A DNA stretch of 64,000 nt from positions 2,114-66,113 of the forward strand of contig CAZMXG010000008.1 of assembly GCA_964570175.1 (NCBI GenBank). Direction: 5' to 3'. Below are positions 14,500 to 51,142 of the stretch, piece by piece. Both the position numbers and the translations under genes were made by a program. The notes beneath the pieces are model-generated. The model was not told the DNA's origin. It saw nothing but the letters and a program-made list of their open reading frames with translations, and made no database searches. The number at the start of each line of letters is the position of its first letter. Positions within the stretch are counted from its first letter, which is position 1. This DNA comes from an uncultured Heliomicrobium sp. GTDB taxonomy: Bacteria; Acidobacteriota; Blastocatellia; RBC074.

Positions 14500-15705
14500 T
14501 TAACCGATAACTCTCAGCACAATACATTTCAAATAATACGTTTCCGGTACAGTCAGCAAAATCGGATGGTCGCGGCCCTGCGTTCGCTTTTCGACGATTT
14601 GAACCTGGCGACCGGAATCGCGGGCGGCTTCCAGCAGCATTTCCAGGAACAGTTCTTCGCCGACGTGGTAAGAGCATGAACAGGTAATCAAAACTCCGCC
14701 CGGATTTAGAATTCGCAGTGCGCGCAGATTGATTTCCTTGTACCCGCGAATCGCTCCTTCCAATGCGCCTCGGTTTTTGGCGAAAGCGGGTGGGTCCAGC
14801 ACAATCGTGTCGAAGCGTTCACCAGCGTCGTCGTAATCGCGCAGACGGTCAAACACGTTTGCGGCGATGAATTCGATGTTGGTAACGCCGTTCAGTTCTG
14901 CGTTGCGGCTGGCGCGTTCGATGGCAGGTTCGGAAATATCAATCGCCGTTACCGTGTCGCAATCACTGGCCAGATGCAGCGCGAACGAACCGTGGAAGCT
15001 GAAACAATCCAGCCCGCGTCCGGTGGCGTAATTCATTGCTGCGGCTCGGTTTTCCCGCTGATCCAAAAACGCTCCAGTCTTTTGGCCTTCCAGCAAATCC
15101 ACCTGGAACTTGATTCCATTTTCGGTGATTGGGAATTCGGCGGCGGTCGAACCATCTTTTGAATACAGCACCGAATTGATCATCGGCAATCCTTCAAGCT
15201 GGCGGACTTTTGCGTCATTGCGTTCGACGATCAAACGCGGCTGGAACTCTTCGATTAGCAGCTCAGTCCACATCGGTTTCAGCGCATCCATTCCACGCGT
15301 CAGCGTTTGCAACACAAAACAATCGCCATAACGATCAATGATCAAACCGGGCAGGTAATCGCCTTCGGAATGGATTAATCGGAAAGCATCCGTGTCAGTC
15401 ACGATTCGCCGCCGCCAATCGGCAGCCGCAAGCAGTCGCTCGCGCCAGAATTCGCGATTGATTTCTGTTTCTTCTTTAGAAATCAGCCGCAGCGTAATTT
15501 CAGATTCGGCTCCGAAATGCGCCTGAGCAAGAAAGCGACCTCGGTTGTCCGCAACGCGAACGACCGAACCGGTTTCGGCTTTCGGGCGACCCGTCACGTC
15601 GCTGCGGTAAATCCACAAATGCCCATCGCGCACACGGGCTGCGCCTTTGGGAGAAATCACTGCTGTGTCTTTTGGATGTTGTTGCGTTTGTTGAATGCGT
15701 TTCAT
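14500..15705 (-). CDS. rlmI: Class I SAM-dependent 23S rRNA (cytosine-C5) methyltransferase, RlmI-like (PUA plus MTase)
   Basis: Contains GHLWIYRSDV (PUA), GQKTGAFLDQREN, LDCFSFHGSFALH, and IVLDPPAFAK. The track start is TTG (15738); the first ATG is at 15705. Confidence 0.75.
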   Translation of the reverse strand: MKRIQQTQQHPKDTAVISPKGAARVRDGHLWIYRSDVTGRPKAETGSVVRVADNRGRFLAQAHFGAESEITLRLISKEETEINREFWRERLLAAADWRRRIVTDTDAFRLIHSEGDYLPGLIIDRYGDCFVLQTLTRGMDALKPMWTELLIEEFQPRLIVERNDAKVRQLEGLPMINSVLYSKDGSTAAEFPITENGIKFQVDLLEGQKTGAFLDQRENRAAAMNYATGRGLDCFSFHGSFALHLASDCDTVTAIDISEPAIERASRNAELNGVTNIEFIAANVFDRLRDYDDAGERFDTIVLDPPAFAKNRGALEGAIRGYKEINLRALRILNPGGVLITCSCSYHVGEELFLEMLLEAARDSGRQVQIVEKRTQGRDHPILLTVPETYYLKCIVLRVIG

Positions 15706-15771
15706 AATTAAGCCGGAGGCGGATAGGTCATCCGCCAAGTTCGATAGTTCACCATTTCAGGCATTCGGTCA

Positions 15772-16281
15772 ATGAGTCAAATTGCTTATCTAGGCTTGGG
15801 ATCAAATCTTGGCGACCGCGCAGGCAACTTGCGGCAGGCAATTTCGGCGTTGGTCAGCGGAGGGTTACAAATTGTTGCCGAATCATCCGTTTACGAAACC
15901 GATCCGGTGGATTTTCTGGATCAGCCAAAGTTTCTGAATCAGGTCATTGCTGTCACTGCACCGAACTTGGAGCCATATTCTTTAATGAAGTTCTGCTTCG
16001 AAGTTGAATCGCAGCTTGGCCGCGAACGAATCATTCCGCGTGGAGCCAGAACCCTAGACATTGATTTGCTGTTGTTCGGCGATTTCATCCTGGATGGCGA
16101 ATATCAGGGGATCAATCTAATCGTTCCGCATCCGCGAATGCATTTGCGGCGGTTCGTGCTGCAGCCGCTGGCCGAAATCGCGCCGCAACTTGTTCATCTA
16201 ACTTCTGGAAAAACGATTAGCCAATTGCTGGATTCCGTTCCCCATGATTCTGCTGTGCGGCTTTACACCCACCAAGCCTAA
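15772..16281 (+). CDS. folK: 2-amino-4-hydroxy-6-hydroxymethyldihydropteridine diphosphokinase
   Basis: 169 aa. Contains AYLGLGSNLGDR, SSVYETDPV, RTLDIDLLLFG, VPHPRMHLRRFVL. Confidence 0.85.
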   Translation: MSQIAYLGLGSNLGDRAGNLRQAISALVSGGLQIVAESSVYETDPVDFLDQPKFLNQVIAVTAPNLEPYSLMKFCFEVESQLGRERIIPRGARTLDIDLLLFGDFILDGEYQGINLIVPHPRMHLRRFVLQPLAEIAPQLVHLTSGKTISQLLDSVPHDSAVRLYTHQA

Positions 16282-16287
16282 ACTGTC

Positions 16288-16305
16288 CCTGACAAACTTG
16301 TCAGG
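16288..16305. promoter_or_regulatory. Palindrome CCTGACAAACTTGTCAGG upstream of the Rrf2 gene (candidate operator, or alternatively the folK terminator)
   Basis: A perfect 8+8 inverted repeat, 58 bp upstream of the Rrf2 GTG. A related site, CCTGACTATTTTGTCAAC, lies just upstream of sufB. Confidence 0.4.
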
Positions 16306-16362
16306 TTTAAGTTCGCGTGCTAGTATCCGGCTTCATTAAGAACAAAACAAAGCGGTTACAAC

Positions 16363-16875
16363 GTGAAAATCACATCTCAAGAAGAATATGGCCTTCGCTG
16401 CATTTTGCAGTTGGCGCGTGAACAGCAAAGCAATTCGGACTCGAATTTAGAGCCGGGCGCAATGTTCGTCCGCGACATTGCCGACCGTGAAGGCCTGTCG
16501 GTGGCGTACGTTGAGAAAATTTTGTGGACACTAAGTCGCAGCGGAATTGTCGAAAGCGTTCGCGGGCCAAAAGGCGGTTATCGGTTGACGCGGCCAAGTT
16601 CGGAAATCTCGCTTGGCGAAGTGATGCGCGTTCTGGGCGGCATTCCATCAGAACAGGAAATCTGTTCGCAGTTCACAGGCAATCAAGACACTTGCGTGCA
16701 TCACGACGATTGCGGGCTTCGACCTGTCTGGACCAGCATTACAGATTTCGTCAACAGCGTTTTCGATAAAGTTCCGGTTTCGGCTTTGCTGACCGGAGCG
16801 ATTGATGTGAAGTTCGTGCAGATTACCAGCAAGAACGGCAGCAGATTACCCGCCGTCGCACGCGCAGCGAACTAG
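16363..16875 (+). CDS. Rrf2 family transcriptional regulator (IscR/SufR-like, probable Fe-S sensing)
   Basis: GTG start. MKITSQEEYGLRCILQLA... is an Rrf2 wHTH. A Cys cluster, CSQFTGNQDTCVHHDDC, is present. It sits directly upstream of sufB. Confidence 0.85.
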   Translation: MKITSQEEYGLRCILQLAREQQSNSDSNLEPGAMFVRDIADREGLSVAYVEKILWTLSRSGIVESVRGPKGGYRLTRPSSEISLGEVMRVLGGIPSEQEICSQFTGNQDTCVHHDDCGLRPVWTSITDFVNSVFDKVPVSALLTGAIDVKFVQITSKNGSRLPAVARAAN

Positions 16876-16900
16876 AAACCGCAAAAAAATTGCACTCGTA

Positions 16901-16918
16901 CCTGACTATTTTGTCAAC
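16901..16918. promoter_or_regulatory. Second copy of the CCTGAC-N-TTGTCA inverted repeat, in front of sufB
   Basis: CCTGACTATTTTGTCAAC lies 18 bp upstream of the sufB ATG and shares both half-sites with 16288-16305. Confidence 0.4.
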
Positions 16919-16935
16919 TTAGGGGAAAGATAAAG

Positions 16936-18375
16936 ATGAGCACAGCGGCTGTAGAGGCACTTGCCAATCGAGAATACAAATACGGTTTTGTCACGGACAT
17001 TGAAGCCGAAACGATTCCGCGCGGGTTGAACGAAGACATCGTTTGCACCATTTCCGCCAAAAAGAATGAGCCGGAATGGTTGCTGGAATGGCGGCTGAAG
17101 GCTTATCGCCACTGGTTGACGATGACAGAGCCGGAATGGGCCAACGTCAATTATCCGAAGATTGATTACCAGGACATCATTTATTACTCCGCGCCTAAGC
17201 CGAAAAAGAAGCTGGAAAGTCTGGATGAAGTTGATCCTGAACTGATAGACACGTTTGAAAAGCTGGGCATACCGCTTCACGAGCAGAAGCTGCTGGCCAA
17301 CGTAGCCGTAGACGCAATCTTCGACAGCGTCTCAGTCGCCACCACTTTTCGAGAAAAGCTGGCGAAGGAGGGAGTCATCTTCTGCTCGTTTTCTGAAGCG
17401 GTTCACGATCACCCTGAACTGATCAAAAAGTATCTGGGTTCGGTTGTGCCTTATACCGACAACTATTTTGCGGCGTTGAATTCCGCAGTCTTTTCTGATG
17501 GTTCGTTCTGTTTCATTCCCAAAGGCGTCCGTTGCCCAATGGAATTGTCGTCTTATTTCCGCATCAACAACTCGGAATCCGGACAGTTTGAACGCACATT
17601 GATTGTCGCCGAAGAGCGCAGCCACGTTTCTTATCTGGAAGGTTGCACCGCGCCGAAATTCGACAAGAATCAGTTGCATGCCGCTGTTGTCGAACTGGTT
17701 GCGCTGGATGATGCTGAAATCAAGTATTCAACGGTTCAGAACTGGTACGCGGGCGATGAAGAAGGGAAGGGCGGCATTTACAACTTTGTTACCAAGCGCG
17801 GCGCGTGTCGCGGCGTCAATTCCAAGATTTCCTGGACGCAGGTTGAAACCGGTTCGGCCATCACCTGGAAATATCCAAGCTGCATTTTGCAGGGCGATAA
17901 CTCCATCGGCGAGTTTTACTCCGTCGCGCTGACCAATCACATGCAGCAAGCCGATACCGGCACGAAGATGATTCACATTGGCAAAAATACGCGCAGCCGG
18001 ATTGTCAGCAAAGGCATTTCCGCCGGACGCTCGAACAACAGCTATCGCGGGTTAGTAAAGATTCTGCCGAAGGCCGAAAACGCCCGGAACTATTCGCAAT
18101 GTGACAGCTTGCTGATCGGCACGAAGTGCGGCGCAAATACGTTTCCGTACATCGAAGTCGGCAACTATACCGCCAAGATTGAGCACGAAGCTTCGACTTC
18201 CAAGATCAGTGAAGAGCAGATTTTCTATTTCAACCAACGCGGTGTTTCAACCGAAGACGCCGTTTCGATGATCATCAACGGATTTTGCAAAGAAGTTTTC
18301 CGTGAACTGCCGATGGAGTTTGCCGTCGAAGCGACGCGCTTGCTGGGGCTGAAGCTGGAAGGAAGCGTAGGATAA
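16936..18375 (+). CDS. sufB: Fe-S cluster assembly protein SufB
   Basis: 479 aa. The N-terminus ...[13 protein letters not shown] is canonical. Also seen: GCTAP, the [16 protein letters not shown] motif, and the C-terminus [18 protein letters not shown]. Confidence 0.95.
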
Positions 18376-18380
18376 CGGTT

Positions 18381-18689
18381 ATGACGCTCGAACAGGTCAA
18401 AGAACTATTTCAAACCGAGGCATTACAAGAACTCTGCCGACAAAATGGTGTGGAACGATTAAGTGTATTCGGCTCAACCGCTCGCAATGAAGCCACAGAA
18501 CAAAGCGACCTGGATTTGCTGGTTAGCTTTTCAAGTTCAAAGAAGTTTGGGTTGTGGGAGTTCATGGCTTTTGAAGACAAACTTGCCGAAGCAGTCCACA
18601 CCAAAGTGGATTTGGTAATGGAAAATGCGCTGAATGAACATCGCCGCGAAAGCATTTTACGTGATAAGCAGGTGATTTATGGTTCGTGA
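18381..18689 (+). CDS. mntA: Nucleotidyltransferase-domain antitoxin (MNT/MntA type)
   Basis: 102 aa. Contains LSVFGSTARNEATEQSDLDLLVSF (GSxxR...DxD NTase motif). It overlaps the downstream HepT gene by 11 nt. Confidence 0.8.
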   Translation: MTLEQVKELFQTEALQELCRQNGVERLSVFGSTARNEATEQSDLDLLVSFSSSKKFGLWEFMAFEDKLAEAVHTKVDLVMENALNEHRRESILRDKQVIYGS

Positions 18690-19020
18690 GATTGCGTATC
18701 TCAAAGACATACTTGATTGCATCGAAAAGCTGGAAAGCTACCTGAATGGTGTAGACAAACCCGGATTCCTGGCAAATAGCCTCTTGCAAGACGGAGTAAT
18801 TCGCAACCTGGAAGTTATTGGCGAGGCGGCTAAGTGCCTTCCTGAATCGCTCAAGCAAAAACAACCGCAAATACCATGGAAACAGGTCACGGGAACCCGC
18901 GACCGCTTGATACATCAATACTCCAAAATTGATTTGGAAATTGTTTGGCGAACAGTTACGCAAGACTTAATGCCGCTGAAAACAGCAATAACAGAACTAC
19001 TCAAGGAATGGGATACATAA
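18679..19020 (+). CDS. hepT: DUF86/HepT HEPN-domain toxin
   Basis: 113 aa. Contains the HEPN Rx4-6H motif in GTRDRLIHQYSKIDLEIVW. It is paired with an upstream MNT gene. Confidence 0.8.
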   Translation: MVREIAYLKDILDCIEKLESYLNGVDKPGFLANSLLQDGVIRNLEVIGEAAKCLPESLKQKQPQIPWKQVTGTRDRLIHQYSKIDLEIVWRTVTQDLMPLKTAITELLKEWDT

Positions 19021-19024
19021 ATCT

Positions 19025-19468
19025 ATGACAGACAAACTCGCAGAAATTGAAGCTTCATTGCCGCCGGTTCCAAATGCGGCGGGAACTTATGTTCATGCCG
19101 TGCGCACGGGCAATCTTCTTTACTTGGCAGGCAAAGGCCCCATCTCTGCCGTTAAGGGAAAAGTCGGAGCTGAGTTCACCAAAGAAGAAGGTTACCAATA
19201 CGCGCGTGAAACAGGGTTGACGTTGCTGGCTGTGCTGAAAGCTGAACTCGGCACGCTGGCCAAAGTGAAGCGCGTTGTAAAAGTGCTGGGAATGGTCAAC
19301 GCCACGCCGGAGTTTGGCGATCAGCCGTTTGTTATCAATGGTTGTTCGGATTTGTTCGTTGAAGTTTTTGGCGATGCCGGACGTCACGCACGGTCAGCGG
19401 TTGGAATGGGATCGTTGCCGCACGGCATTCCGGTCGAAATCGAAGCGATCGTTGAAGTCGCAGACTAG
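19025..19468 (+). CDS. RidA/YjgF family enamine/imine deaminase
   Basis: 147 aa. Contains NLLYLAGKGP...ARSAVGMGSLPHGIPVEIEAIVEV, a typical RidA C-terminus. Confidence 0.8.
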   Translation: MTDKLAEIEASLPPVPNAAGTYVHAVRTGNLLYLAGKGPISAVKGKVGAEFTKEEGYQYARETGLTLLAVLKAELGTLAKVKRVVKVLGMVNATPEFGDQPFVINGCSDLFVEVFGDAGRHARSAVGMGSLPHGIPVEIEAIVEVAD

Positions 19469-19487
19469 CAAAACAGGAGTCAGTTTT

Positions 19488-19730
19488 ATGAGATTTGAAT
19501 TTGTGTCTGAAGAAAATGGCCTGGAAGTTTTACGTGACAAGGTTACTGATGAGGTTTTGGCAAGGGTTACTGTCATCACTCAGAATGGAGTTACTTTGAC
19601 AAGAGAAGATGACCAAGTTAGCTCAAAAACATTTCCTGTAACCAATACGTCACAAATACTTGGTGGTACACATTTAACAAGTCTTCTGGACTTTTTAGGC
19701 AAATCGTCTAAAGACCCAATAATCCCCTAA
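19488..19730 (+). CDS. Hypothetical small protein (80 aa)
   Basis: The ATG at 19488 is preceded by AGGAG. The stretch is A+T-richer than its neighbours by eye. I recognise no family. The track shows only a longer alternative (19314) that overlaps RidA. Confidence 0.4.
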   Translation: MRFEFVSEENGLEVLRDKVTDEVLARVTVITQNGVTLTREDDQVSSKTFPVTNTSQILGGTHLTSLLDFLGKSSKDPIIP

Positions 19731-19746
19731 GACGAAGGTAGAACTG

Positions 19747-20223
19747 ATGGAAACGTCGCAATACTTTCTGGATCAGGCGCGCTGGTATTTCACGTCGTAC
19801 TATTTGCCGAGGATTGAGCATTGTCTGGCTCAATTGACCGACGAAGATATTTGGCGACGAGCCAATGACGCTTCGAACAGCATCGGCAATTTAGTTCTGC
19901 ATCTTTCGGGCAACGTGCAGCAATGGATCATTGGCGGCGTAGGCGATCTGCCGTATCACCGCGACCGCGAGCATGAATTCGGCGAACGCGGCGGAATTAC
20001 TCGTGAACAGTTGCTGGTTCGATTGAAAGAAACGTTGGCAAAAGCCGATCAGGTGCTAGCGGAAGTTGATCCGGCAAGCTTGCTTCAGCGTAAAGAGATT
20101 CAAGGGAACGATGTGACGGTGATGCAGGCAATTTTGCGCATCGTGCAGCATTTCGGTTTGCACACCGGGCAAATCATGTTGCTGACCAAACAGTATACGG
20201 GCGAAGATTTGAAGTTGTCTTAA
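19747..20223 (+). CDS. DinB-family (DUF1572-like) four-helix metalloprotein
   Basis: 158 aa. Contains NSIGNLVLHLSGNVQQWI, and later IVQHFGLHTGQIMLL; the His triad spacing is typical of the DinB fold. Confidence 0.75.
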   Translation: METSQYFLDQARWYFTSYYLPRIEHCLAQLTDEDIWRRANDASNSIGNLVLHLSGNVQQWIIGGVGDLPYHRDREHEFGERGGITREQLLVRLKETLAKADQVLAEVDPASLLQRKEIQGNDVTVMQAILRIVQHFGLHTGQIMLLTKQYTGEDLKLS

Positions 20224-20259
20224 TTGAGGAACCGCGCAGGAGCGGGAGGGAGAAGATCA

Positions 20260-21015
20260 GTGCTAGAGATTCGTAACCTACACGCCACGATTGATGGCAA
20301 AGAGATTTTGAAAGGCTTGAATCTGACGGTCAAAGCCGGCGAGATTCACGCGATTATGGGACCGAATGGCTCCGGCAAGAGTACGCTGGCGAAAGTGCTG
20401 GCTGGGCATCCCAGCTATGAAGTAACCGTCGGCGAAGTTCTATACGACGGCAAAAACCTGCTGGAACTGGCGCCGGACGAACGGGCACGCGAAGGCGTCT
20501 TTCTGGCGTTTCAATATCCGATTGAAATTCCAGGTGTCAGCAACGCCAACTTTCTGCGCATGGCCTACAACGAGAAAGCCAAGCACGATGGCCGCGACGA
20601 GCTTGATCCCCTGGAATTCGACGACCTGATTCAGGAAAAAATCAAAATCGTTGAAATGGACAAAAGCTTCATCAATCGTTCGGTCAACGAAGGTTTTTCC
20701 GGCGGCGAAAAGAAGCGCAACGAAATCCTGCAAATGGCTGTGCTGGAACCGAAGCTGGCGGTATTGGACGAAACTGATTCCGGTCTGGACATTGACGCGC
20801 TGCGGATCGTTGCGGGTGGCGTCAACAAATTGGCCAACAAAGACAACGCCATCATTCTGGTGACGCATTACCAGCGGTTGCTGGATTACATCGAACCGGA
20901 TGTTGTTCACGTGTTGTATCGTGGCCAGATCGTCAAATCTGGCGGCAAAGACTTGGCGTTGGAGTTGGAAAAGAAAGGCTACGACTGGATCAAGACTGCA
21001 AGTGCAGCGGCGTAA
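20260..21015 (+). CDS. sufC: Fe-S cluster assembly ATPase SufC
   Basis: The GTG at 20260, preceded by GGGAGGG, gives (M)LEIRNLHA. Walker A is GPNGSGKST, the signature is [10 protein letters not shown], and Walker B is [12 protein letters not shown]. The track start (TTG at 20224) is probably too long. Confidence 0.95.
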
Positions 21016-21023
21016 AAAAGCTT

Positions 21024-21338
21024 ATGTTCGTTATTGTTTGGCAATTTGATGTGCAACTAAACCACGTCACGGAGTTTGAAGAGCAATATAGCTCCACGGG
21101 TGCTTGGGCCAAGTTGTTTTCAAAAAGCAACCAATTCCTGAGAACGCGACTGTTGAAGGAAGCGGGAATGTCGCGCCGATATGTCACCTTTGATCTGTGG
21201 AAATCGGAAGACGCGTTTCAGGAATTCGCGGCTGAATTTGCCCAGGAATACAAGGATTTGAACGCGAAAACTGCGCGATTGACAATTTCGGAAACGCGGC
21301 TGGGTTCGTTCACAACGGATGCCGCAAACATTTTTTGA
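21024..21338 (+). CDS. Small ABM/dimeric alpha-beta-barrel-like protein
   Basis: 104 aa. It begins MFVIVWQFDV...FEEQY...YVTFDLWKSEDAFQEF, an ABM-like pattern. This is a weak, pattern-based call. Confidence 0.45.
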   Translation: MFVIVWQFDVQLNHVTEFEEQYSSTGAWAKLFSKSNQFLRTRLLKEAGMSRRYVTFDLWKSEDAFQEFAAEFAQEYKDLNAKTARLTISETRLGSFTTDAANIF

Positions 21339-21344
21339 ATTGAT

Positions 21345-22679
21345 ATGCCTCAAGTAGCAAAAGAAAAAGAGAATTATTTTTCAGCGTACAAGCTGTTTGC
21401 CAAAACACGTGAAGCCAAAGACTCGGCCTGGTTGCTGAACCTGCGCCAGCGCGCGGGCGAAAGTTTTGAGGAACTCGACTTTCCGACGACGCGCAACGAA
21501 GCGTGGAAATACACCAACGTTGCGCCGGTGTTGAAAACTCCGTTTCGGCAATTGCTGGATTTGGAACTGGATGGATTGACGGTTGAAACAATCGCGCCAT
21601 TCACGTTTGCCGAATCGCACCGCAGCCAGTTGGTTTTCGTCAACGGATTATTTGCCAGTGAACTGTCAAACCTGACTGGATTGCCATCAGGAATCACGGT
21701 CAGCAATTTGGCCGATGTTCCGGCGGAGCTTGGCAAAGTCGTCAGCGATCATCTGGGCGTGTACGCCGATTACCGCGATCAGGCGTTCACTGCGCTGAAC
21801 ACGGCGAATGTTGGTGACGGAGCCTTCGTTCACATCCCGAAAGGCAAAGCGGTCGAAACGCCGATTCATGTGTTGTTCATTTCAACTTCGGCGGAAGCGA
21901 CAGTTTCGCATCCGCGCGTGCTGATCGTTGCCGAAGAGGCTTCGATTGCGACTGTGATTGAAAGTTACGTTTCGCCAGGCGAAGGCGTCTATTTCACCAA
22001 TGCCGTCACAGAAGTTTTTGCCGCCAAAAGCGCTGTGCTGGATCATTACCGGTTGCAGGAAGAAAGCGAAAGTGCGTTTCACATCGGCACGACCGAAGTT
22101 CATCAGGAACGCGACAGCAATTACACTTCGTACGCAATTTCGCTGGGCGGGGAAATCGCCCGCCACGATTTGAATGTTGCGCTGGTTGACGAAAACATCG
22201 AAACGACGATTGACGGCCTGTACATCGCCACAGGCAAACAGCACGTGGACAATCACACGACGATTGATCATCAGAAACCACACTGCACCAGCCATCAGCT
22301 TTACAAAGGAATTCTGGACGATCGTTCGCGCTCAGTTTTCAATGGCATCGTTTTCGTCCGCGAAGGCGCAGTGCTGACCGATGCGCATCAGTTGAACAAA
22401 AACCTGTTGCTGTCCAGCGAAGCCACCGCGAACACCAAACCGCAACTGGAAATTTTTGCAGATGACGTGAAGTGCGCGCACGGCGCAACCGTCGGCCAAC
22501 TTGAAGACGAAGAATTATTTTATCTGGCGGCACGCGGCATCCCGAAAGATAGCGCGCGCGCGCTGCTAACCTATGGTTTTGCCGAAGACGTGATCAGCAA
22601 GATCAAATTGAAATCCGTCCACGAACGTTTAGACAGAATGGTGCTGGACAAGCTGCACCAAAGTTTGGAGGTTGTTTAG
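21345..22679 (+). CDS. sufD: Fe-S cluster assembly protein SufD
   Basis: 444 aa. Contains RNEAWKYTNV, the HxxHxxS-type region DNHTTIDHQKPHCTSHQLYKGIL, and the C-terminus LTYGFAEDVI. Confidence 0.9.
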   Translation: MPQVAKEKENYFSAYKLFAKTREAKDSAWLLNLRQRAGESFEELDFPTTRNEAWKYTNVAPVLKTPFRQLLDLELDGLTVETIAPFTFAESHRSQLVFVNGLFASELSNLTGLPSGITVSNLADVPAELGKVVSDHLGVYADYRDQAFTALNTANVGDGAFVHIPKGKAVETPIHVLFISTSAEATVSHPRVLIVAEEASIATVIESYVSPGEGVYFTNAVTEVFAAKSAVLDHYRLQEESESAFHIGTTEVHQERDSNYTSYAISLGGEIARHDLNVALVDENIETTIDGLYIATGKQHVDNHTTIDHQKPHCTSHQLYKGILDDRSRSVFNGIVFVREGAVLTDAHQLNKNLLLSSEATANTKPQLEIFADDVKCAHGATVGQLEDEELFYLAARGIPKDSARALLTYGFAEDVISKIKLKSVHERLDRMVLDKLHQSLEVV

Positions 22680-23942
22680 ATGCAAGCCGCGTTGGAGCGC
22701 GAAGCAGCGCACACAAATAACAGCAATTTTGATGTCGAACGGATTCGCCGTGACTTCCCGATTCTGAACGAAACGATTCACGGTCGTCCCTTGGTGTATT
22801 TAGACAGCGCCGCGACTTCGCAAAAACCGCAAGTCGTGCTGGATGCGCTGAATCGTTACTACGCTGAGCAGAACTCCAACGTGCATCGCGGAGTGCATTA
22901 TCTGAGCCAACTCGCAACGCGCGAATACGAAGACGCGCGCGTCAAAATCCAGCATTTCCTGAATGCCGCCGATTCGCACGAAATCATTTACACCAGCGGC
23001 ACAACGGCTGGAATCAATCTGGTGGCGCTCAGTTACGGCCGCAAATTCGTTCACGCCGGAGACGAAATCATCATTTCGGCAATGGAGCATCACTCGAACA
23101 TCGTGCCGTGGCAGATGCTGTGCGAACAAACAGGCGCAAAACTTCGCGTCATTCCAATGAACGATGCGGGTGAATTGCTAATAGATGAATTCGCCGCGAT
23201 GCTGAATTCAAAGGTGAAGATCGTCGCCGTCAACCACATCTCAAATGCGCTGGGAACGATCAATCCTGTCAAACGAATTATCGAACTGGCGCACAGCCGC
23301 GACATTCCTGTGTTGATTGACGGCGCGCAAGCCGCGCCGCATTTGAAAATTGATGTGCGCGACCTGGATTGCGATTTTTACGCATTTTCCGGTCACAAAC
23401 TGTGCGGGCCAACAGGCATTGGCGTGCTTTACGGCAAAAGCCACTGGCTGGAATCCATGCCTCCGGTTTTTGGCGGCGGAGACATGATCGCTTCGGTGAC
23501 GTTTGAAAAAACGACCTACAACTCGCTGCCGTACAAGTTCGAAGCCGGAACGCCGAACATTGCTGACGCCATCGGGTTAGGTGTGGCGATTGAGTATCTG
23601 AATAGTATCGGCCTGGATAAAATCGCGGCTTATGAACACGAACTGCTGGAATACGCGACAGAAACCATCGGCGCGATTCCCGGCGTTTCGCTGATCGGCA
23701 CGGCGCAGGAAAAAGCCAGCGTGTTGTCCTTCACCATCGAAGGCATTCACCCGCATGACATCGGCACGATTCTGGATCAGGAAGGCATCGCCGTTCGCGC
23801 CGGTCATCACTGTGCGCAGCCGGTAATGAAACGCTTCGGCGTTCCGGCCACAGCACGCGCTTCGTTTGCGTTCTACAACACCAAAGCGGAAATTGACGTG
23901 CTGGCCGAAGGCATTCAGAAAACAATTGAAGTATTTTCGTGA
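22680..23942 (+). CDS. sufS: Cysteine desulfurase SufS (class V, group II)
   Basis: 420 aa. Contains YLDSAATSQKP, NVHRGVH, SGHKLCGPTGIG (PLP Lys), and RAGHHCAQP (catalytic Cys loop). Confidence 0.95.
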   Translation: MQAALEREAAHTNNSNFDVERIRRDFPILNETIHGRPLVYLDSAATSQKPQVVLDALNRYYAEQNSNVHRGVHYLSQLATREYEDARVKIQHFLNAADSHEIIYTSGTTAGINLVALSYGRKFVHAGDEIIISAMEHHSNIVPWQMLCEQTGAKLRVIPMNDAGELLIDEFAAMLNSKVKIVAVNHISNALGTINPVKRIIELAHSRDIPVLIDGAQAAPHLKIDVRDLDCDFYAFSGHKLCGPTGIGVLYGKSHWLESMPPVFGGGDMIASVTFEKTTYNSLPYKFEAGTPNIADAIGLGVAIEYLNSIGLDKIAAYEHELLEYATETIGAIPGVSLIGTAQEKASVLSFTIEGIHPHDIGTILDQEGIAVRAGHHCAQPVMKRFGVPATARASFAFYNTKAEIDVLAEGIQKTIEVFS

Positions 23943-24030
23943 GGTGACGGGTTTCAGGTTTGAGGTTTCAGAAACGAACTCTGTCCCAACAACCTGACAC
24001 CTGACACCTGACACCTGACACCTGACACCT
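23943..24030. repeat. Hairpin spacer between sufS and sufU; the right arm is 5.4 tandem copies of the heptamer CCTGACA
   Basis: Left arm ggtgacgggtttcaggtttgaggtttcag (23943-23971). Right arm aaCCTGACACCTGACACCTGACACCTGACACCTGACAcct (23991-30). By my hand alignment, 23 of 29 positions are complementary. It fills the gap exactly from the sufS stop to the sufU ATG. Confidence 0.7.
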
Positions 24031-24501
<471 letters not shown>

Positions 24502-24778
24502 ATCACCTGCTGTCATTTTGGGATTGATCCTTCCACCATTACCGCCATTGCGGCGAAAACCACTGTAAACTTTCATCGTGCCCACCCTGCTAACTGGTTC
24601 CGCTTTTTTTTGTGGGACTGTGGTGCATGGCTTTCAGCGCCGGGTATGTTACGGTCTATTGGTTCTTGCTGGAGCTTCCGGCCATCAGGCGCAGGCCGTT
24701 GTCGGATGACCGGCCCATTTTCTTCAAACGGCGTTAGATTTATACCAACATCGGACTTACTGCTTTCATCACAAATGT

Positions 24779-25675
24779 ATGCTCATTAAAACGGCTCACG
24801 AAACCAGATCGGAACAACAGGAAAACGTTGATTTTTTCTCTGTCGCGGGAATCACTTTCTTTTTTCTGCATCTGGCTTGCTTTTTGGTTCTGTGGTTGAA
24901 GTTTAGCTGGCTGGCGCTGGGCGTCTGCGTAGCTTGTTATCTGGTCAGGATGTTCGGCATCACGGCTGGATTTCATCGCTACCTTTCGCATCGCACTTAC
25001 AAAACAAGCCGCGCCTTTCAATTCATATTGGCCTGGGTTGGCACCGCAGCAGGCCAGCGCGGGCCATTGTGGTGGGTGGCCCACCATCGCAACCATCATC
25101 GCTTCACCGATACAGACCGCGACGTTCATTCGCCGGTAAGTTACAGCTTTTTCCAGTCGCATATTGGCTGGATACTGTGCCACAAGAACGACACCGTAGA
25201 CCTCAGTATGGTCAAAGACCTGAGCCGTTACCCCGAACTTCGCTGGCTGGACCGTTTTTATTATGTGCCGGAGGTGACGCTGGCCGGAGGCTTGACCTTA
25301 GCGGGCTGGCTGCTGGGCCGTTACGCGCCGGAATGGCAGACCTCGGCTTTGCAGATGTTTATTTACGGGTATGTGCTTAGCACCGTGTTGCTGTATCACG
25401 GGACGTTCAGTGTTAATTCGGTGGCGCATCGATTTGGCCGCCGACGCTTTGCCGTTAAAGATGAAAGCCGCAACAACTATTGGGTTGCCCTGATCACACT
25501 CGGCGAAGGCTTTCACAACAATCATCATTATTATCCGGCGTCGGAACGGCAGGGGTTTTATTGGTGGGAGCTTGATGTGGCGCATTACTGTCTGAAGGCG
25601 CTTTCGTGGTGTGGTGTCGTGTGGGATTTGCAAGCTCCGCCTGATCGCGTATTGCTCGTTGGCCGTTCGAGTTGA
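24779..25675 (+). CDS. Membrane acyl-CoA/acyl-lipid (delta-9 type) fatty acid desaturase
   Basis: Three histidine boxes are present: HRYLSH, HHRNHHRF, and HNNHH. There are N-terminal TM segments. Confidence 0.85.
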   Translation: MLIKTAHETRSEQQENVDFFSVAGITFFFLHLACFLVLWLKFSWLALGVCVACYLVRMFGITAGFHRYLSHRTYKTSRAFQFILAWVGTAAGQRGPLWWVAHHRNHHRFTDTDRDVHSPVSYSFFQSHIGWILCHKNDTVDLSMVKDLSRYPELRWLDRFYYVPEVTLAGGLTLAGWLLGRYAPEWQTSALQMFIYGYVLSTVLLYHGTFSVNSVAHRFGRRRFAVKDESRNNYWVALITLGEGFHNNHHYYPASERQGFYWWELDVAHYCLKALSWCGVVWDLQAPPDRVLLVGRSS

Positions 25676-25803
25676 ATGAGCAGATCGTCCATTGTATGAA
25701 GCGCTGATGTGACAAAAAGAGATTGATCTTCAGTCCTGAAGATAGATCGCTTAAAATTTTAAGCAGATTGCTCAAGTTAGCAGACAGCGGCTAGCATTGG
25801 CCT

Positions 25804-26667
25804 ATGCATTGCCCTTCGCTCAAAGAACTTCCGACTGCGCCCGCTGGTTGCACGGGATGGCCGTGGACGGAAGCTCAGCCGAACCCTTCCGTCGCCGACG
25901 CTTCTTTGCTGCCGAAAATCAGCGTCATCACGCCTTCGTTTAATCAAGCCGGATTCCTGGAGCAGACAATTCGCTCCGTCTTGCTGCAAAATTATCCCAA
26001 CCTGGAATACATCATCATGGATGGCGGCAGCATGGATGACAGCGCGGACATCATTCGGCGCTACGAACGCTGGCTGGCGCACTGGGTCAGCGAACCGGAC
26101 AAGGGGCAAAGCCAGGCAATCAATCGCGGTTTGGCAAAAGCCATGGGCGATGTGATGTGCTGGCTGAACAGTGACGATTACTTTTTGCCGCACACACTGA
26201 TGACGGTCGGGAGAATGCTTGCCGATGGTAGCGGCAATTTCGCTCTGGCGGGCCATTGTTTGCGAATCAATGGCGATGGAGTGCCGCCGGTTTTTCTTCG
26301 CGGGCGCTACCGTAACCGGCAGCGGTTGCTGGAGTTTTGGAAGGGCTACGAAATGCATCAGCCGGCGATTTTCTGGCGGCGCGAAGCCTTTGAAAAGGTG
26401 GGTTGGCTGGACGAATCGCTGCACTTGATTATGGATTTTGATTACTGGACGCGCATCGCCCGGCATTACGATTTCGTCAATGTTGATCAAGTGCTGGCTT
26501 GCTGCAATTACCACGAAGCGGCGAAAACCGGCGACGAATACGCCGCCTATTATCGCGATCTGGAAAAGCGCGCTCGAAAATATTGGCCGTCAATCTGGTC
26601 GCCGGAGCGCTGGCAACTGGAGCTTTCGATGTTTCGCAACTTGACGCTTGGAGGGCAGCGGGATTGA
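25804..26667 (+). CDS. Glycosyltransferase family 2 (GT-A)
   Basis: Contains ISVITPSFNQAGFLEQTIRSVLLQNYPNLEYIIMDGGSMDDS...WLNSDDYF. Confidence 0.85.
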   Translation: MHCPSLKELPTAPAGCTGWPWTEAQPNPSVADASLLPKISVITPSFNQAGFLEQTIRSVLLQNYPNLEYIIMDGGSMDDSADIIRRYERWLAHWVSEPDKGQSQAINRGLAKAMGDVMCWLNSDDYFLPHTLMTVGRMLADGSGNFALAGHCLRINGDGVPPVFLRGRYRNRQRLLEFWKGYEMHQPAIFWRREAFEKVGWLDESLHLIMDFDYWTRIARHYDFVNVDQVLACCNYHEAAKTGDEYAAYYRDLEKRARKYWPSIWSPERWQLELSMFRNLTLGGQRD

Positions 26668-27554
26668 TCGGGCAAACCGACAAGGCAAACGTTTCCGTCG
26701 TTGTCCCGGTGTACAACGGCGAAGCGACTATTTCACAAACGGTTGAATGCTTACTTCAACAAAGCTTGGCTCCGCGCGAAATTATCGTTATTGACGATGG
26801 TTCGACTGACCGAACTGCCGACGTGTTAAAGCCCTTTGCCAACCAAATCCTGTACACGTTCAAAGAGAATGGCGGACCAGCTTCGGCGCGAAATCTAGGC
26901 GTGAAGTTGGCGAGTGGCGACTTTGTTGCTTTCACCGACAGCGACTGTTTGCCGGAACGTGACTGGCTGCGAGAGCTTGTTGCCGCATTTGATTCTGATG
27001 AAATTGCCGGAGTCGGTGGCGCGGTAAAAGGCATTGACGATGGACACATTGGCCAGTACGTAGATGCGATGAGATTGATGGAACCGGCTGAAAATCAATT
27101 TGGGGAAATTGAATACTTGATTACAGCTAACGCCTGTTTTCGTCGAGATGCTTTGCTCGCCGTTGGTTTGTTTGACGAACGGTTTCGCAAACCGGGCGGC
27201 GAAGAACCTGCGTTGTGTCGCCAAATCCGGGAGCTTGGGTTTCGCTTTGATTTTGCCGAAGATGCCGTTGTCTTGCATCACCACCGTCAAACGATCAAAA
27301 GCTTTTTACGCACGCTCAGCAATTACGGTGAAGGGCGATTCTTGCTCGGCCAGCTCTGGCCCGAATATCAAATCCAGCGGCCACGACGCGCGTTTTTCAG
27401 GCAGATGATTGCGCTGCGCTCGCTGGTGCAACGATATTCGGGGTACAGCAGAAGCTACGACACAGAGCAGGCATTTCTGTTTTCTTCGCTGGATTATCTG
27501 CGGGAATTGGCGTTTTTGTGGGGATACCTGCGCGGTCAGCGATATGCAGCCTAA
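26664..27554 (+). CDS. Glycosyltransferase family 2
   Basis: Contains VSVVVPVYNGEATI...IIVIDDGSTDRT...ENGGPASARNLG...AFTDSDC. I place the start at TTG 26664 (a TTGA overlap with the upstream stop); this is uncertain. The track start (26499) overlaps the previous gene by 169 nt. Confidence 0.75.
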   Translation: MIGQTDKANVSVVVPVYNGEATISQTVECLLQQSLAPREIIVIDDGSTDRTADVLKPFANQILYTFKENGGPASARNLGVKLASGDFVAFTDSDCLPERDWLRELVAAFDSDEIAGVGGAVKGIDDGHIGQYVDAMRLMEPAENQFGEIEYLITANACFRRDALLAVGLFDERFRKPGGEEPALCRQIRELGFRFDFAEDAVVLHHHRQTIKSFLRTLSNYGEGRFLLGQLWPEYQIQRPRRAFFRQMIALRSLVQRYSGYSRSYDTEQAFLFSSLDYLRELAFLWGYLRGQRYAA

Positions 27555-47900: not shown

Positions 47901-47995
47901 TTCGGGGAATCCTCCTTCGCTGCTATGCTAGCCCGGCAGTTTCAACACAGTAAAGCCAGAGGAAAAAAACAGAGGAAAAAATATGATACCTGCTC

Positions 47996-48182
47996 AGCCC
48001 CAACGGGGCTGGATATGACAGCCCAGTGCAACGCACTGGGAACGAGAATCAAAAGATTGCACGAGCCCCAACGGGGCGAAATAACAAGGTTACCCATTTC
48101 GCCCTTTCAGGGCTTTGGGGCCATCCCATTGCTTACCCGGCGCGTCGCACCGGGCTGCTGCATTTTGCCCCCTTGGGGCTGA
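47996..48182. repeat. About 185-nt nested imperfect palindrome (structured REP/MITE-like element), copy 2
   Basis: Terminal hairpins are cagccccaacggggctg and gcccccttggggctg. atatgacagcccagtg pairs with caccgggctgctgcat. The central hairpin is gccccaacggggcgaaat...atttcgccctttcagggc. The layout matches 1564-1748, with many compensating differences. Confidence 0.6.
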
Positions 48183-48195
48183 ACAATTACAAAAC

Positions 48196-49075: not shown

Positions 49076-49166
49076 CGGAGCAGAAGCTGTGAGCAATAAC
49101 GTGTCGGCAGGCTTCCCCCGTTGCCCGACCGACGCCCGGTCGTTATCGCTCACGGCATCTGCTCCG
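49076..49166. repeat. Long (26-bp stem) imperfect hairpin downstream of the 48196-49053 gene
   Basis: cggagcagaagctgtgagcaataacg (49076-49101) pairs with cgttatcgctcacggcatctgctccg (49141-49166) at 23 of 26 positions. The 39-nt loop has further internal pairing (gtcggcag/ttgcccgac). Confidence 0.5.
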
Positions 49167-49354: not shown

Positions 49355-49924
49355 ATGACAAATCCATCTCAACAAAATGTGACGCAATTGCTGGAAGCCT
49401 GGAACAAGGGCGACGAATCGGCGCGCGATGAATTGTTGCCGCTGGTGTATCAGGAACTGCATAAACTGGCTGGGCGCTATCTTGGCCGGGAACGCACCGG
49501 ACACACGCTGCAAACAACGGCGCTGGTCCACGAAGCCTATCTGCGGCTGGTAGATCAAAAAGACGCCCAGTGGCAAAACCGCTCGCATTTCTTTGCGGTG
49601 GCGGCAACACAAATGCGGCGCGTGCTGGTTGATTACGCGCGCAGCCGTCACATGGCCAAACGCGGAGGCGGCGCCCAGCAGGTGGAACTGGACGAGGCGC
49701 TGGTGGTTTCGGACGAACGCGCCGCCGATGTCGTCGCACTGGATGATGCGCTGAAGGCGCTGGCCGAATTCGATGAACGCAAATGCCGCATGGTCGAACT
49801 TCGCTTTTTTGGCGGCCTGAGCATCGAAGAAACGGCGGAAGTGTTAGGCGTTTCGCCCGGCACGGTGATGCGCGACTGGACGTTGGCAAAAGCCTGGCTG
49901 CAACGGGAAATTGAAAAAGAATAG
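49355..49924 (+). CDS. ECF-type RNA polymerase sigma factor (kinase-associated, ECF43-like)
   Basis: Contains VTQLLEAWNKGDESARDELLPLVYQELHKLA...HTLQTTALVHEAYLRL, region 4 MVELRFFGGLSIEETAEVLGVSPGTVMRDW, and is followed by a kinase gene. Confidence 0.9.
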   Translation: MTNPSQQNVTQLLEAWNKGDESARDELLPLVYQELHKLAGRYLGRERTGHTLQTTALVHEAYLRLVDQKDAQWQNRSHFFAVAATQMRRVLVDYARSRHMAKRGGGAQQVELDEALVVSDERAADVVALDDALKALAEFDERKCRMVELRFFGGLSIEETAEVLGVSPGTVMRDWTLAKAWLQREIEKE

Positions 49925-50005
49925 GTATTAGGTGATAGGTTTCAGGTGTTAGGTTCTCAATTCCTGAATACCTATCCCCACCTCCTAACCCCAATCTCCT
50001 AACTC
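49921..50005. repeat. Hairpin spacer between the ECF sigma and kinase genes (TAGGT/TTAGG arm and CCTAA/CCTAT arm)
   Basis: ggtgataggtttcagg (49931-49946) pairs with cctgaatacctatcccc (49962-49978). The flanks, ataggtatta... and ...cctcctaaccccaatctcctaactcc, continue the purine/pyrimidine asymmetry. It spans from the sigma stop codon to 3 nt before the kinase ATG. Confidence 0.5.
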
Positions 50006-50008
50006 CCA

Positions 50009-51142
50009 ATGCAAACGGATCGCTGGCGACAAATTGAAGCTCTCTTCCATCAGGCGTTGGAGCGTTCGCCGAACGAACGCGACCTGTTTCTGGCGATGGC
50101 TTGCGGAACCGATGCGGCGTTGCGACGGGAAGTCGAATCGCTGTTGGCTACGCAGCAAAAAACGGACGGCTTACTGGAAACACCGGCGGCTGATCTGGCG
50201 GCAGAGTGGGCGCAGGCAAGCCACCAATCAAAAGGCCGAACGGAAAAATTGAAGCAGCAGGCGATTGGGCCGTATCAAATTCTTTCCAAGTTGGGCAAAG
50301 GCGGAATGGGCGAAGTTTATCTGGCCGAAGACAGCCGGTTACGGCGCAAAGTGGCGCTGAAACTGCTTCCGGCAGAAATTGCCAATCGCAAAGAACGATT
50401 GCGCCGCTTCCAGACGGAAGCCCTTGCTGCCAGCGCCACCAATCATCCCAACATCATCACCATTTACGAAATCGGCGTTGTGGATTCGATTCATTTTCTG
50501 GCCACGGAATTCGTCGAAGGCCAAACGCTGCGAAAATTGCTGACCAGCCGCGAACTGGAACTTGGCGAATCTCTGGACATTGCCATACAAATTGCCGGAG
50601 CGCTTTCTTCCGCGCATACGGCAGGAGTTCGCCACCGCGACATCAAACCGGAAAACATCATGGTGCGGCCTGACGGATTGGTGAAGGTGTTGGATTTCGG
50701 TCTGGCCAAGTTGGAAGAGCCGCGCGCAATTATGACGGATTCAAGCGCGACGACTTTTGTTGATGTGAACACCTTGCCCGGAATGGTGATGGGAACGGCG
50801 CAATACATGTCGCCTGAACAGACGCGCGGGCTGGAACTGGACCATCGCACGGACATTTTCAGTCTCGGCGTTGTGCTATATGAAATGGCAACCGGAAACG
50901 CTCCGTTTAGCGGTGATGAAGTGATCGAAGTCATGGCTTCAATCGCACACCGCCAACCGGTGGCGCTGACCAAGCTGGCGCTAAAGGCTCCCGCCCGCTT
51001 GGAACAAATCGTCAATCAAGCGCTACAAAAGAATCGCGACCAGCGGTATCAAACTGCCGCCCAATTTCAGGCTGACTTGAAAGAATTAAAGCTGGAACTG
51101 GAGATCAAAGCCTGGCTGGAAAAGAATCCCGGTCGGATGTAA
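50009..51142 (+). CDS. Ser/Thr protein kinase (soluble), partner of the upstream ECF sigma
   Basis: The N-terminal domain reads DRWRQIEALFHQALERSPNERDLFL...REVESLL. Kinase motifs: GKGGMGEVYLAED, VALKLL, HRDIKPENIMV, DFGLAK, and YMSPEQ. Confidence 0.9.
   Translation: MQTDRWRQIEALFHQALERSPNERDLFLAMACGTDAALRREVESLLATQQKTDGLLETPAADLAAEWAQASHQSKGRTEKLKQQAIGPYQILSKLGKGGMGEVYLAEDSRLRRKVALKLLPAEIANRKERLRRFQTEALAASATNHPNIITIYEIGVVDSIHFLATEFVEGQTLRKLLTSRELELGESLDIAIQIAGALSSAHTAGVRHRDIKPENIMVRPDGLVKVLDFGLAKLEEPRAIMTDSSATTFVDVNTLPGMVMGTAQYMSPEQTRGLELDHRTDIFSLGVVLYEMATGNAPFSGDEVIEVMASIAHRQPVALTKLALKAPARLEQIVNQALQKNRDQRYQTAAQFQADLKELKLELEIKAWLEKNPGRM

Follow-up and report, generated by a model that had tools for sequence, protein, structure and literature searches.

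We report that the gap between sufS and sufU, the genes for a cysteine desulfurase and a sulfur-transfer protein, is filled by a single hairpin with tandem-heptamer arms in a 64,000-nt stretch of DNA from an uncultured Heliomicrobium sp. of the Blastocatellia (contig CAZMXG010000008.1; hereafter the window, whose own numbering is used throughout). This spacer is one member of a dispersed class of STRR-like heptamer hairpins, of which Blastocatellia and other Acidobacteriota have many copies. With a probability of roughly 0.6, we read it as an STRR-like palindrome lying in an originally coupled stop/start junction and looped out in the RNA, with the coupling of sufU to sufS kept. An effect of the hairpin on sufU translation, which had been proposed in an earlier note made from the sequence of this DNA, is a plausible inference.

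A single hairpin spans the sufS-sufU gap

Both genes lie on the forward strand. The sufS open reading frame (ORF) occupies positions 22680-23942, with its TGA stop at 23940-23942, and scores 615.8 bits against the NCBIfam model TIGR01979; the sufU ORF runs from its ATG at 24031 to 24501 and scores 173.9 bits against TIGR01994, both scores being above the cut-off. The 88 nt between them (23943-24030) are predicted to fold, as plus-strand RNA, into one long imperfect hairpin that covers 23939-24032, with a 22-nt loop and an energy of -39.4 kcal/mol. Dinucleotide shuffles of the spacer reached -25.6 +/- 3.4 kcal/mol, which places the spacer at a z of -4.0, and one shuffle in 200 was as good. The same hairpin was recovered by an ungapped inverted-repeat scan (23939-24030). 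The minus-strand RNA of the spacer folds at -36.8 kcal/mol (z -2.8) and the spacer as single-stranded DNA at -17.5 kcal/mol (z -2.7).

The two arms differ in regularity. The G-rich 5' arm (23939-23971, plus strand) is composed of heterogeneous units, GGTGACG, GGTTTCA, GGTTTGA and GGTTTCA followed by a G, and its pairing with the 3' arm leaves one U-C mismatch in each unit; Tandem Repeats Finder describes it as GGTTTCA x3.1 at 86% identity (23950-23971). A non-repeated loop of about 21-22 nt, AAACGAACTCTGTCCCAACAA (23972-23992, plus strand), is delimited by the sequence and the fold. The 3' arm (23993-24030, plus strand) consists of 5.4 CCTGACA units that are 100% identical and run up to the sufU ATG; in the register chosen by Tandem Repeats Finder, it is ACCTGAC x5.6 at 100% identity (23992-24030). 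At the base of the 5' arm, a Shine-Dalgarno (SD)-like GAGGTGA (23941-23947, plus strand) overlies the sufS TGA stop and pairs with the CACCU directly before the AUG. The earlier note had described the whole gap as a single hairpin with a left arm made of repeat units and a right arm of 5.4 perfect CCTGACA units reaching the start codon. This description holds in each of its parts, and folding the spacer, a check that the note had itself proposed, gave the advantage over shuffled sequence reported above.

A search of Rfam over positions 15000-27000 returned no match at an E of 1 or less. An integron attC-like reading of the ORF-hairpin-ORF order was also considered and found no support, as no integrase is evident and the arms are tandem repeats.

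The junction in related genomes

A SufU search, with one genome per species, returned relatives from the Blastocatellia and Pyrinomonadaceae (Acidobacteriota), and the closest SufU proteins are those of L001 (94%), L002 (93%) and L003 (90%). The distance from the sufS stop to the sufU start was measured in the 72 loci where both gene ends are present. It is -1 to 12 nt in 22 of them, as TAATG overlaps or abutting codons, 30-200 nt in 30, and 0.3-4.8 kb, with inserted genes, in 20. Clear hairpins (fold z of -2.8 or lower) were found in 19 of the 30 spacers of 30-200 nt. The arms of the relatives' spacers are again tandem heptamers, and the words are specific to each genome: CCGACTA (L002), ATTTACG (L014), CCAAGAC (L022), TCACGAT (L035), CTACTGT (L041), CTACTGA (L034) and others. 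The spacers of L006, L007, L008 and L010 resemble decayed remnants. On a tree of SufS and SufU, the spacer is present in seven of the eight rows of the window's clade, and over all 43 rows the well-supported branches require a minimum of six gains or losses. L005 has the empty site, TAATG, and the filled sites read TA-GGTGAC...GTCACC-TATG in L003 and TGA-GGTGAC...CACCT-ATG in the window, an arrangement in which a target-site duplication, as looked for in a MITE, is ambiguous.

In many relatives that have no spacer, the final codons of sufS include GAGGTG at a distance of 10-13 nt from the ATG, with an SD energy of -9 to -12 kcal/mol. The last sufS codons of the window read ATT GAA GTA TTT TCG TGA, in which this internal SD has decayed from GAGGTG to GAAGTA via synonymous changes. 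L003 resembles the window in having lost the internal SD and in carrying AGGTGA at the hairpin base; L001 and L002 retain GAGGT. These comparisons show that the junction began as a tightly coupled stop/start pair, in which the sufU SD, GAGGTG, lay within the last sufS codons.

The four orthologous spacers of the window, L001, L003 and L002 were aligned. GG(T) in the 5' arm and ACC in the 3' arm are invariant and recur with a 7-nt period; the other positions differ among the four, with compensatory double changes in 6 of the 19 consensus pairs. In L003 every unit is different and each is paired with its mirror unit. The comparison shows that the spacer was inherited within the window's clade, in which the GGT...ACC scaffold is kept every 7 nt and the rest drifts and compensates. 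In the window, the five identical units of the 3' arm face a 5' arm that is still heterogeneous, with one U-C mismatch in each unit, the hallmark of a single unit multiplied by recent slippage. Metagenome contigs from close strains, whose flanks are about 98% identical to the window, bear on the same point: X3 is shorter by 7 nt at 23992, X4 is longer by a net 7 nt and X5 has the reference length with no gap. Close strains therefore carry 4.4, 5.4 or 6.4 CCTGACA units, so that the comparison of copy number among related strains that the earlier note had suggested returns a difference of one unit in either direction. These patterns show a 3' arm that was recently homogenised and expanded via replication slippage into five perfect CCTGACA units.

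More generally, the sufS-sufU junction is prone to insertions. Insertions were seen at this position in L017, L021, L024, L025, L033, L036, L038, L042, L048, L051, L052, L056, L062, L065, L068, L070, L073, L077, L078 and L079, and the inserted genes are unrelated ones, among them a cupin gene in both L051 and L052 and a lipoprotein-like ORF in L017. In L056 (Pyrinomonadaceae, positions 241-682), a gene for a 114-aa protein of the CHMI/tautomerase family (Pfam PF02962, E 4e-13) lies inside a heptamer-armed palindrome at sufS-sufU, whose arms, built of AAATTTC-type units, are 33 nt long, show 94% complementarity and are separated by 376 nt. L072 has an array of this AAATTTC-type flavour without the gene. 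Small gene cassettes may be bracketed, or attracted, by repeat-armed hairpins.

A dispersed class of repeat-armed hairpins

The ungapped inverted-repeat scan was run over the window and 80 related loci (L001-L080), 1.26 Mb with about 1130 called genes. It returned 225 hairpins, 86 of which have periodic arms, most often with a period of 7 nt (49 hairpins; 16 have a period of 9, and 10 each have periods of 8 and 10). The periodic-arm hairpins are intergenic in 79 of the 86 cases, usually start no more than a few nt from the stop codon upstream and span the entire gap; about 75% have co-directional genes on either side, and they are under-represented at divergent junctions. The earlier note had assigned the spacer to a tandem-heptamer hairpin family as the first half of its first option, and this assignment is upheld by the census, with period 7 the commonest and the same junction occupied in many relatives.

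Occupancy is uneven along the suf operon. Among the relatives' loci, a periodic-arm hairpin was found at 16 of 65 sufS-sufU junctions, 13 of 45 sufB-sufC junctions and 8 of 58 sufD-sufS junctions, and at 2 of 55 for sufC-sufD and 1 of 43 for rrf2-sufB. Outside the operon, 41 of 695 junctions were occupied (5.9%); against this, sufS-sufU, at 17 of 66 loci, has an odds ratio of 5.5 (p 1.5e-6), a figure that ignores shared ancestry and is an upper bound on the enrichment. In the window, sufB and sufC are separated by about 1.8 kb with four or five small ORFs (18381-20223), at the junction that is most often hairpin-occupied in relatives.

Members of the family in this genome were counted within the 64-kb window, which holds four other repeat-armed hairpins. 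A second stop-to-start hairpin was seen at 49921-50010 (TAG-gtattaggtgataggtttcaggtgttagg ... cctatccccacctcctaaccccaatctcctaactccca-ATG), with AGGT/ACCT-type units to which Tandem Repeats Finder assigns a period of 14; it was missed by the ungapped scan, so the census undercounts. Three long non-periodic inverted repeats of a different kind, with arms of 26-60 nt and loops of 39-95 nt, lie at 1549-1762, 47991-48185 and 49076-49166.

Among the period-7 hairpins of the window and L001-L080, 42 of 47 have more G in the 5' arm than in the 3' arm (p 2e-8), whichever strand is read. This rule could reflect how the palindromes form or a constraint on the transcript.

The window's own heptamer is widespread. 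Arrays of (CCTGACA)4 or longer, with 4-16 units, occur in at least 120 metagenome contigs (L081-L200) from many environments and in unrelated contexts. About a third of the contigs listed have a GGTGTCA or GGTTTCA arm upstream (33 upstream vs 2 downstream), and the arrays in these contigs are often mixed with CCTGAAA, CCTGAGA or CCCGACA variants within one array. In the metagenomes examined, word depth over the CCTGACA array is 20-150 times that of the flanks. Among the metagenome contigs listed, the arrays have no significant bias to start codons, as an ORF start follows the array in 30 of 83 cases vs 22 of 83 in the reverse control.

A proposed route by which sufU would stay coupled to sufS

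Our preferred reading, a palindrome looped out of a coupled junction, would work as follows. The operon transcript would fold into the hairpin, looping out about 80 nt, and the sufS stop, the SD-like GAGGUGA and the sufU AUG would thereby stay adjacent. Translation of sufU would then stay dependent on sufS in one of two possible ways. In the first, the ribosome terminating on the UGA would melt the lowest pairs of the stem and expose CACCU-AUG, as in the RNA-unfolding model of translational coupling or in coupling by reinitiation (PMC12548453). In the second, the SD would act across the hairpin, as a split ribosome-binding site. An insert that folds away fully would be of the type tolerable at a coupled junction, and such tolerance would trivially explain why the entire gap is one hairpin.

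The sequence context of the sufU start is compatible with this route. No SD was found at -22 to -3 of the window's sufU (SD energy -0.7 kcal/mol), where the leader reads CCUGACACCU-AUG, and an SD between hairpin and ATG was almost never seen in the hairpin-bearing loci. The GAGGTGA at the stem base is predicted to form a duplex of -11.4 kcal/mol with the 3' tail of the 16S RNA. For the sufD-sufS junction, N-termini are too variable in distant relatives to place the starts for an SD analysis.

When more flanking sequence was included in ensemble folding, the arms paired in two registers, 7 nt apart. At 5.4 units, the last 6 nt before the sufU AUG are unpaired with a probability of about 0.66, the AUG itself with 0.75 and the SD-like GAGGUGA with about 0.28. 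Sequestration of the start region by the hairpin is only partial in the model, because register slippage frees the AUG-proximal unit in about two thirds of the predicted ensemble. The unpaired probability of the AUG-proximal 6 nt depends on the number of units: it is 0.19 at 2.4 units, 0.57-0.74 at 4.4-6.4, the range seen in natural strains, and 0.87 at 8.4. A stronger proposal may be built on these models, in which repeat-armed hairpins would colonise overlapping junctions by self-excision at the RNA level, through a looped-out, split ribosome-binding site by which coupling would be kept, and the slippage-prone arm would serve as an evolvable rheostat; we regard it as speculative and unlikely.

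Several points weigh against the reading of a looped-out palindrome that preserves coupling. The missing SD is weak evidence because many Pyrinomonadaceae junctions lack an SD, hairpin or not, and the SD argument for the window's clade rests on four genomes. In a random-library screen, structure placed right after the stop codon was reported to lower the efficiency of coupling (PMC12548453). The enrichment statistic for sufS-sufU is inflated by shared ancestry. Over 31 spacers, the plus and minus strands have about equal energies and similar G-U counts, and no strand asymmetry pointing to RNA-level selection was seen, so that the palindrome may be maintained at the DNA level, with the RNA hairpin as a possible by-product. 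As for RNA data, a few words were matched, in two metatranscriptomes only, and the matches were fragments of relatives and arrays from other loci, not a transcript of the window. Among them, contig X24, from an L002-like relative, continues from sufS into the 5' arm of that relative's spacer for 48 nt or more.

Alternative explanations

The most serious competitor is that the spacer is a neutral passenger, a selfish or mutational by-product without a role, and that initiation at sufU is independent and uses the AUG-proximal unit, left unpaired by register slippage. The equal folding of both strands fits this account, as do the predicted accessibility of the start region, the absence of the spacer from 22 of the 72 relatives, its decay in L006, L007, L008 and L010, and the presence of similar elements at about 6% of the junctions outside the suf operon. 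A passenger without a role, however, would not lead one to expect the compensatory changes in 6 of 19 pairs of the four orthologous spacers, nor an occupancy of sufS-sufU and sufB-sufC that is 4-5 times the background; moreover, the window has neither an SD nor an A/U-rich leader on which independent initiation could rely. We consider this explanation doubtful, though it deserves to be kept in view.

The element may instead act on the stability of the mRNA in the manner of REP sequences, as a block to 3'-5' exonucleases or as a site for RNase III or E, in which case the sufBCDS and sufU portions would differ in stability and be differentially expressed. A long stable stem lies directly after the stop codon here, as in the family overall, transcript stabilisation has been proposed for STRR hairpins (PMC2670836) and for REPs (PMC3733652), and the X24 transcript of the L002-like relative does extend into the 5' arm. 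SufS and SufU act as a pair, however, with no obvious benefit from uncoupling them, and no strand preference is seen among the spacers. We consider this account improbable.

An attenuator or terminator lowering transcription into sufU is very improbable: the RNA hairpin is strong, but it is followed by ATGGCTGAT with no U-tract, a scan of 23600-24700 found neither a terminator-like site nor a promoter of sufU's own, and sufU is needed together with SufS. An intrinsic terminator was rejected on the same scan, the stem being followed by AUGGCUGAU.

The Rrf2 operators and the heptamer array

By NCBIfam, the genes of the neighbourhood are folK, an Rrf2-family regulator (16363-16875), sufB, sufC, sufD, sufS and sufU. 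The earlier note had pointed to two palindromes, upstream of the regulator gene and of sufB, and both are present. The first, a putative Rrf2 operator CCTGACAAACTTGTCAGG, which can be written CCTGACAA-AC-TTGTCAGG, lies at 16288-16305 and overlaps the -35 hexamer of the rrf2 promoter (TTGTCA, 17 nt, TAGTAT). The second, an operator-like site CCTGACTATTTTGTCAAC at 16901-16918, lies 18 nt before sufB; its counterpart in L001 and L002 reads CCTGACACTTTTGTCAAC. Upstream of rrf2, the palindrome reads CCAGACAAACTTGTCAGG in L001, CCAGACAATCTTGTCAGG in L004, CCTGATTTTCTTGTCAGG in L005 and CCTGACAAAAAAGTCAGG in L007, and a modified form, cTTGACaaAAAAGTcAGG, is found in about 40 Pyrinomonadaceae. Upstream of rrf2, about 45 Blastocatellia genomes have conserved the arrangement cTTGACaaAAAAGTcAGGTAT...TAnnAT, in which the -10 is of the TAGTAT type and the spacer measures 17 nt. 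As they are conserved and overlap the promoter, the two palindromes are probable, and credible, Rrf2 operators. The overlap of the putative operator with the -35 hexamer in these genomes suggests that Rrf2 would repress its own gene by promoter occlusion.

The second option of the earlier note was that the CCTGACA array is a bank of regulator half-sites. Such a bank would titrate or recruit the suf regulator, and this reading is given next to no weight here. In its favour, CCTGACA is identical to the left half of the 16288 palindrome and to most of that at 16901, and the palindromes themselves are credible operators. However, the operator, of the form CCTGACA-N4-TGTCAGG, is kept in relatives whose spacer heptamers differ: it is conserved in L001, L002, L004, L005 and L007, and the spacer heptamer there is different or absent, so the two do not co-vary. 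The array holds direct repeats only, with no inverted partner at N4 or N6 spacing, and CTGAC-N6-GTCA occurs only at 16289 and 16902 and not in 23943-24030, even with one mismatch. Outside the array, CCTGACA occurs six times in the window vs 5.0 expected, and is thus not enriched; (CCTGACA)n is found in at least 120 unrelated contigs, and arms of the GGTGTCA/CCTGACA type lie at other junctions in genomes where the operator differs (L014, 6349-6440; L020, 6357-6432). On these comparisons, CCTGACA, a common flavour of the hairpin family, matches the operator half-site by coincidence, and the operator at 16288 is without functional link to the spacer. The CCTGACA array should not be annotated as Rrf2 binding sites, and a tempting false link is thereby removed.

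Comparison with known repeat families

The closest likeness is to the STRR hairpin between hupS and hupL of the filamentous cyanobacteria Anabaena, Nostoc and Lyngbya, usually built of 7-bp repeats, for which a role in transcript stability or translational coupling has been proposed (PMC2670836). In both cases, tandem 7-bp units and their complement form a hairpin between two co-transcribed genes of one enzyme system, and the repeat sequence varies between species. Here, however, the host belongs to the Acidobacteriota (Blastocatellia), the unit CCTGACA/GGTTTCA matches no named STRR unit, and the element fills the full stop-to-start gap of a junction that overlaps in relatives. The named STRR1-3 families, with their Calothrix and Anabaena words and heterocystous hosts, were therefore rejected as an identity: the unit and the host are different, and the likeness is architectural only. 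We use STRR-like as a descriptive class, since the arms are tandem repeats of about 7 nt, their complementary fold is better than chance and many copies are dispersed between genes.

In Xanthomonas, GGGAATC heptamer arrays, about 90% of which are intergenic, include about 70 convergent pairs per genome (Rehm et al. 2015, PMC4692102). Like the hairpins described here, they lie closest to the upstream ORF's end, for the most part with co-oriented genes on both sides, and in convergent pairs, invariably so in Xanthomonas, with the G-rich array first on either strand; at conserved positions, they differ in length and sequence from one close species to another. Essentially one G-quadruplex-prone unit is used there, whereas dozens of locus-specific units are used here, and CCTGACA/GGTTTCA has no G-runs. 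The TAACTGA direct repeats of Beggiatoaceae, cyanobacteria and Bacteroidetes, in which the commonest class ends 1 nt upstream of a start and a role in translation was suggested (PMC4679880), share with the spacer a heptamer array that runs directly to the start codon. They are, however, one specific word in direct repeats without a complementary arm, and the (CCTGACA)n contigs listed from metagenomes lack a significant start-codon bias.

The split ribosome-binding sites of phage T4 genes 38 and 25 offer a mechanistic precedent, established by mutation and probing: a hairpin between SD and AUG loops out about 16-17 nt and restores a functional spacing (PMC3014915). The order predicted here is similar, with GAGGUGA (23941-23947), a hairpin of about 78 nt, CACCU and the AUG, which would give an effective spacing of about 5 nt. 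Unlike in T4, the SD-like bases themselves form the bottom of the stem, and the insert is five times longer.

REP, BIME and REPIN elements of Enterobacteria and Pseudomonas (PMC3733652, PMC3116915) are palindromes of 20-40 bp with a conserved GTAG/CGTC tag and a family-wide consensus, and are tied to RAYT transposases. They resemble the present hairpins as dispersed extragenic palindromes, often within operons after stop codons, with proposed roles in mRNA stability; they differ from them in that the hairpins here have tandem-repeat arms, no GTAG/CGTC tag and a locus-specific sequence. A REP or REPIN identity was rejected, as the element starts with GGTGACGGG and ends with GACACCT, and copies at other loci share its architecture and not its sequence.

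Significance

Heptamer-repeat hairpins have long been known in cyanobacteria, and since 2015 in Xanthomonas, without an established function, and they are here found to be pervasive in Acidobacteriota. The CCTGACA spacer is a further case of a known hairpin type, in Blastocatellia. The sufS-sufU junction is a clean natural experiment, as relatives present it in overlapping, hairpin-filled (with many different heptamers) and gene-interrupted states, and close strains that differ by single units add to the series. This series makes directly testable the question of whether such hairpins preserve, tune or ignore translational coupling. If the rheostat proposal were true, unit number could tune the SufS:SufU ratio between strains, and hairpins of the STRR type would be given a first tested functional logic. 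Whichever way this falls, the STRR-like hairpins form a fast-changing class that fills gene junctions in soil Acidobacteria.

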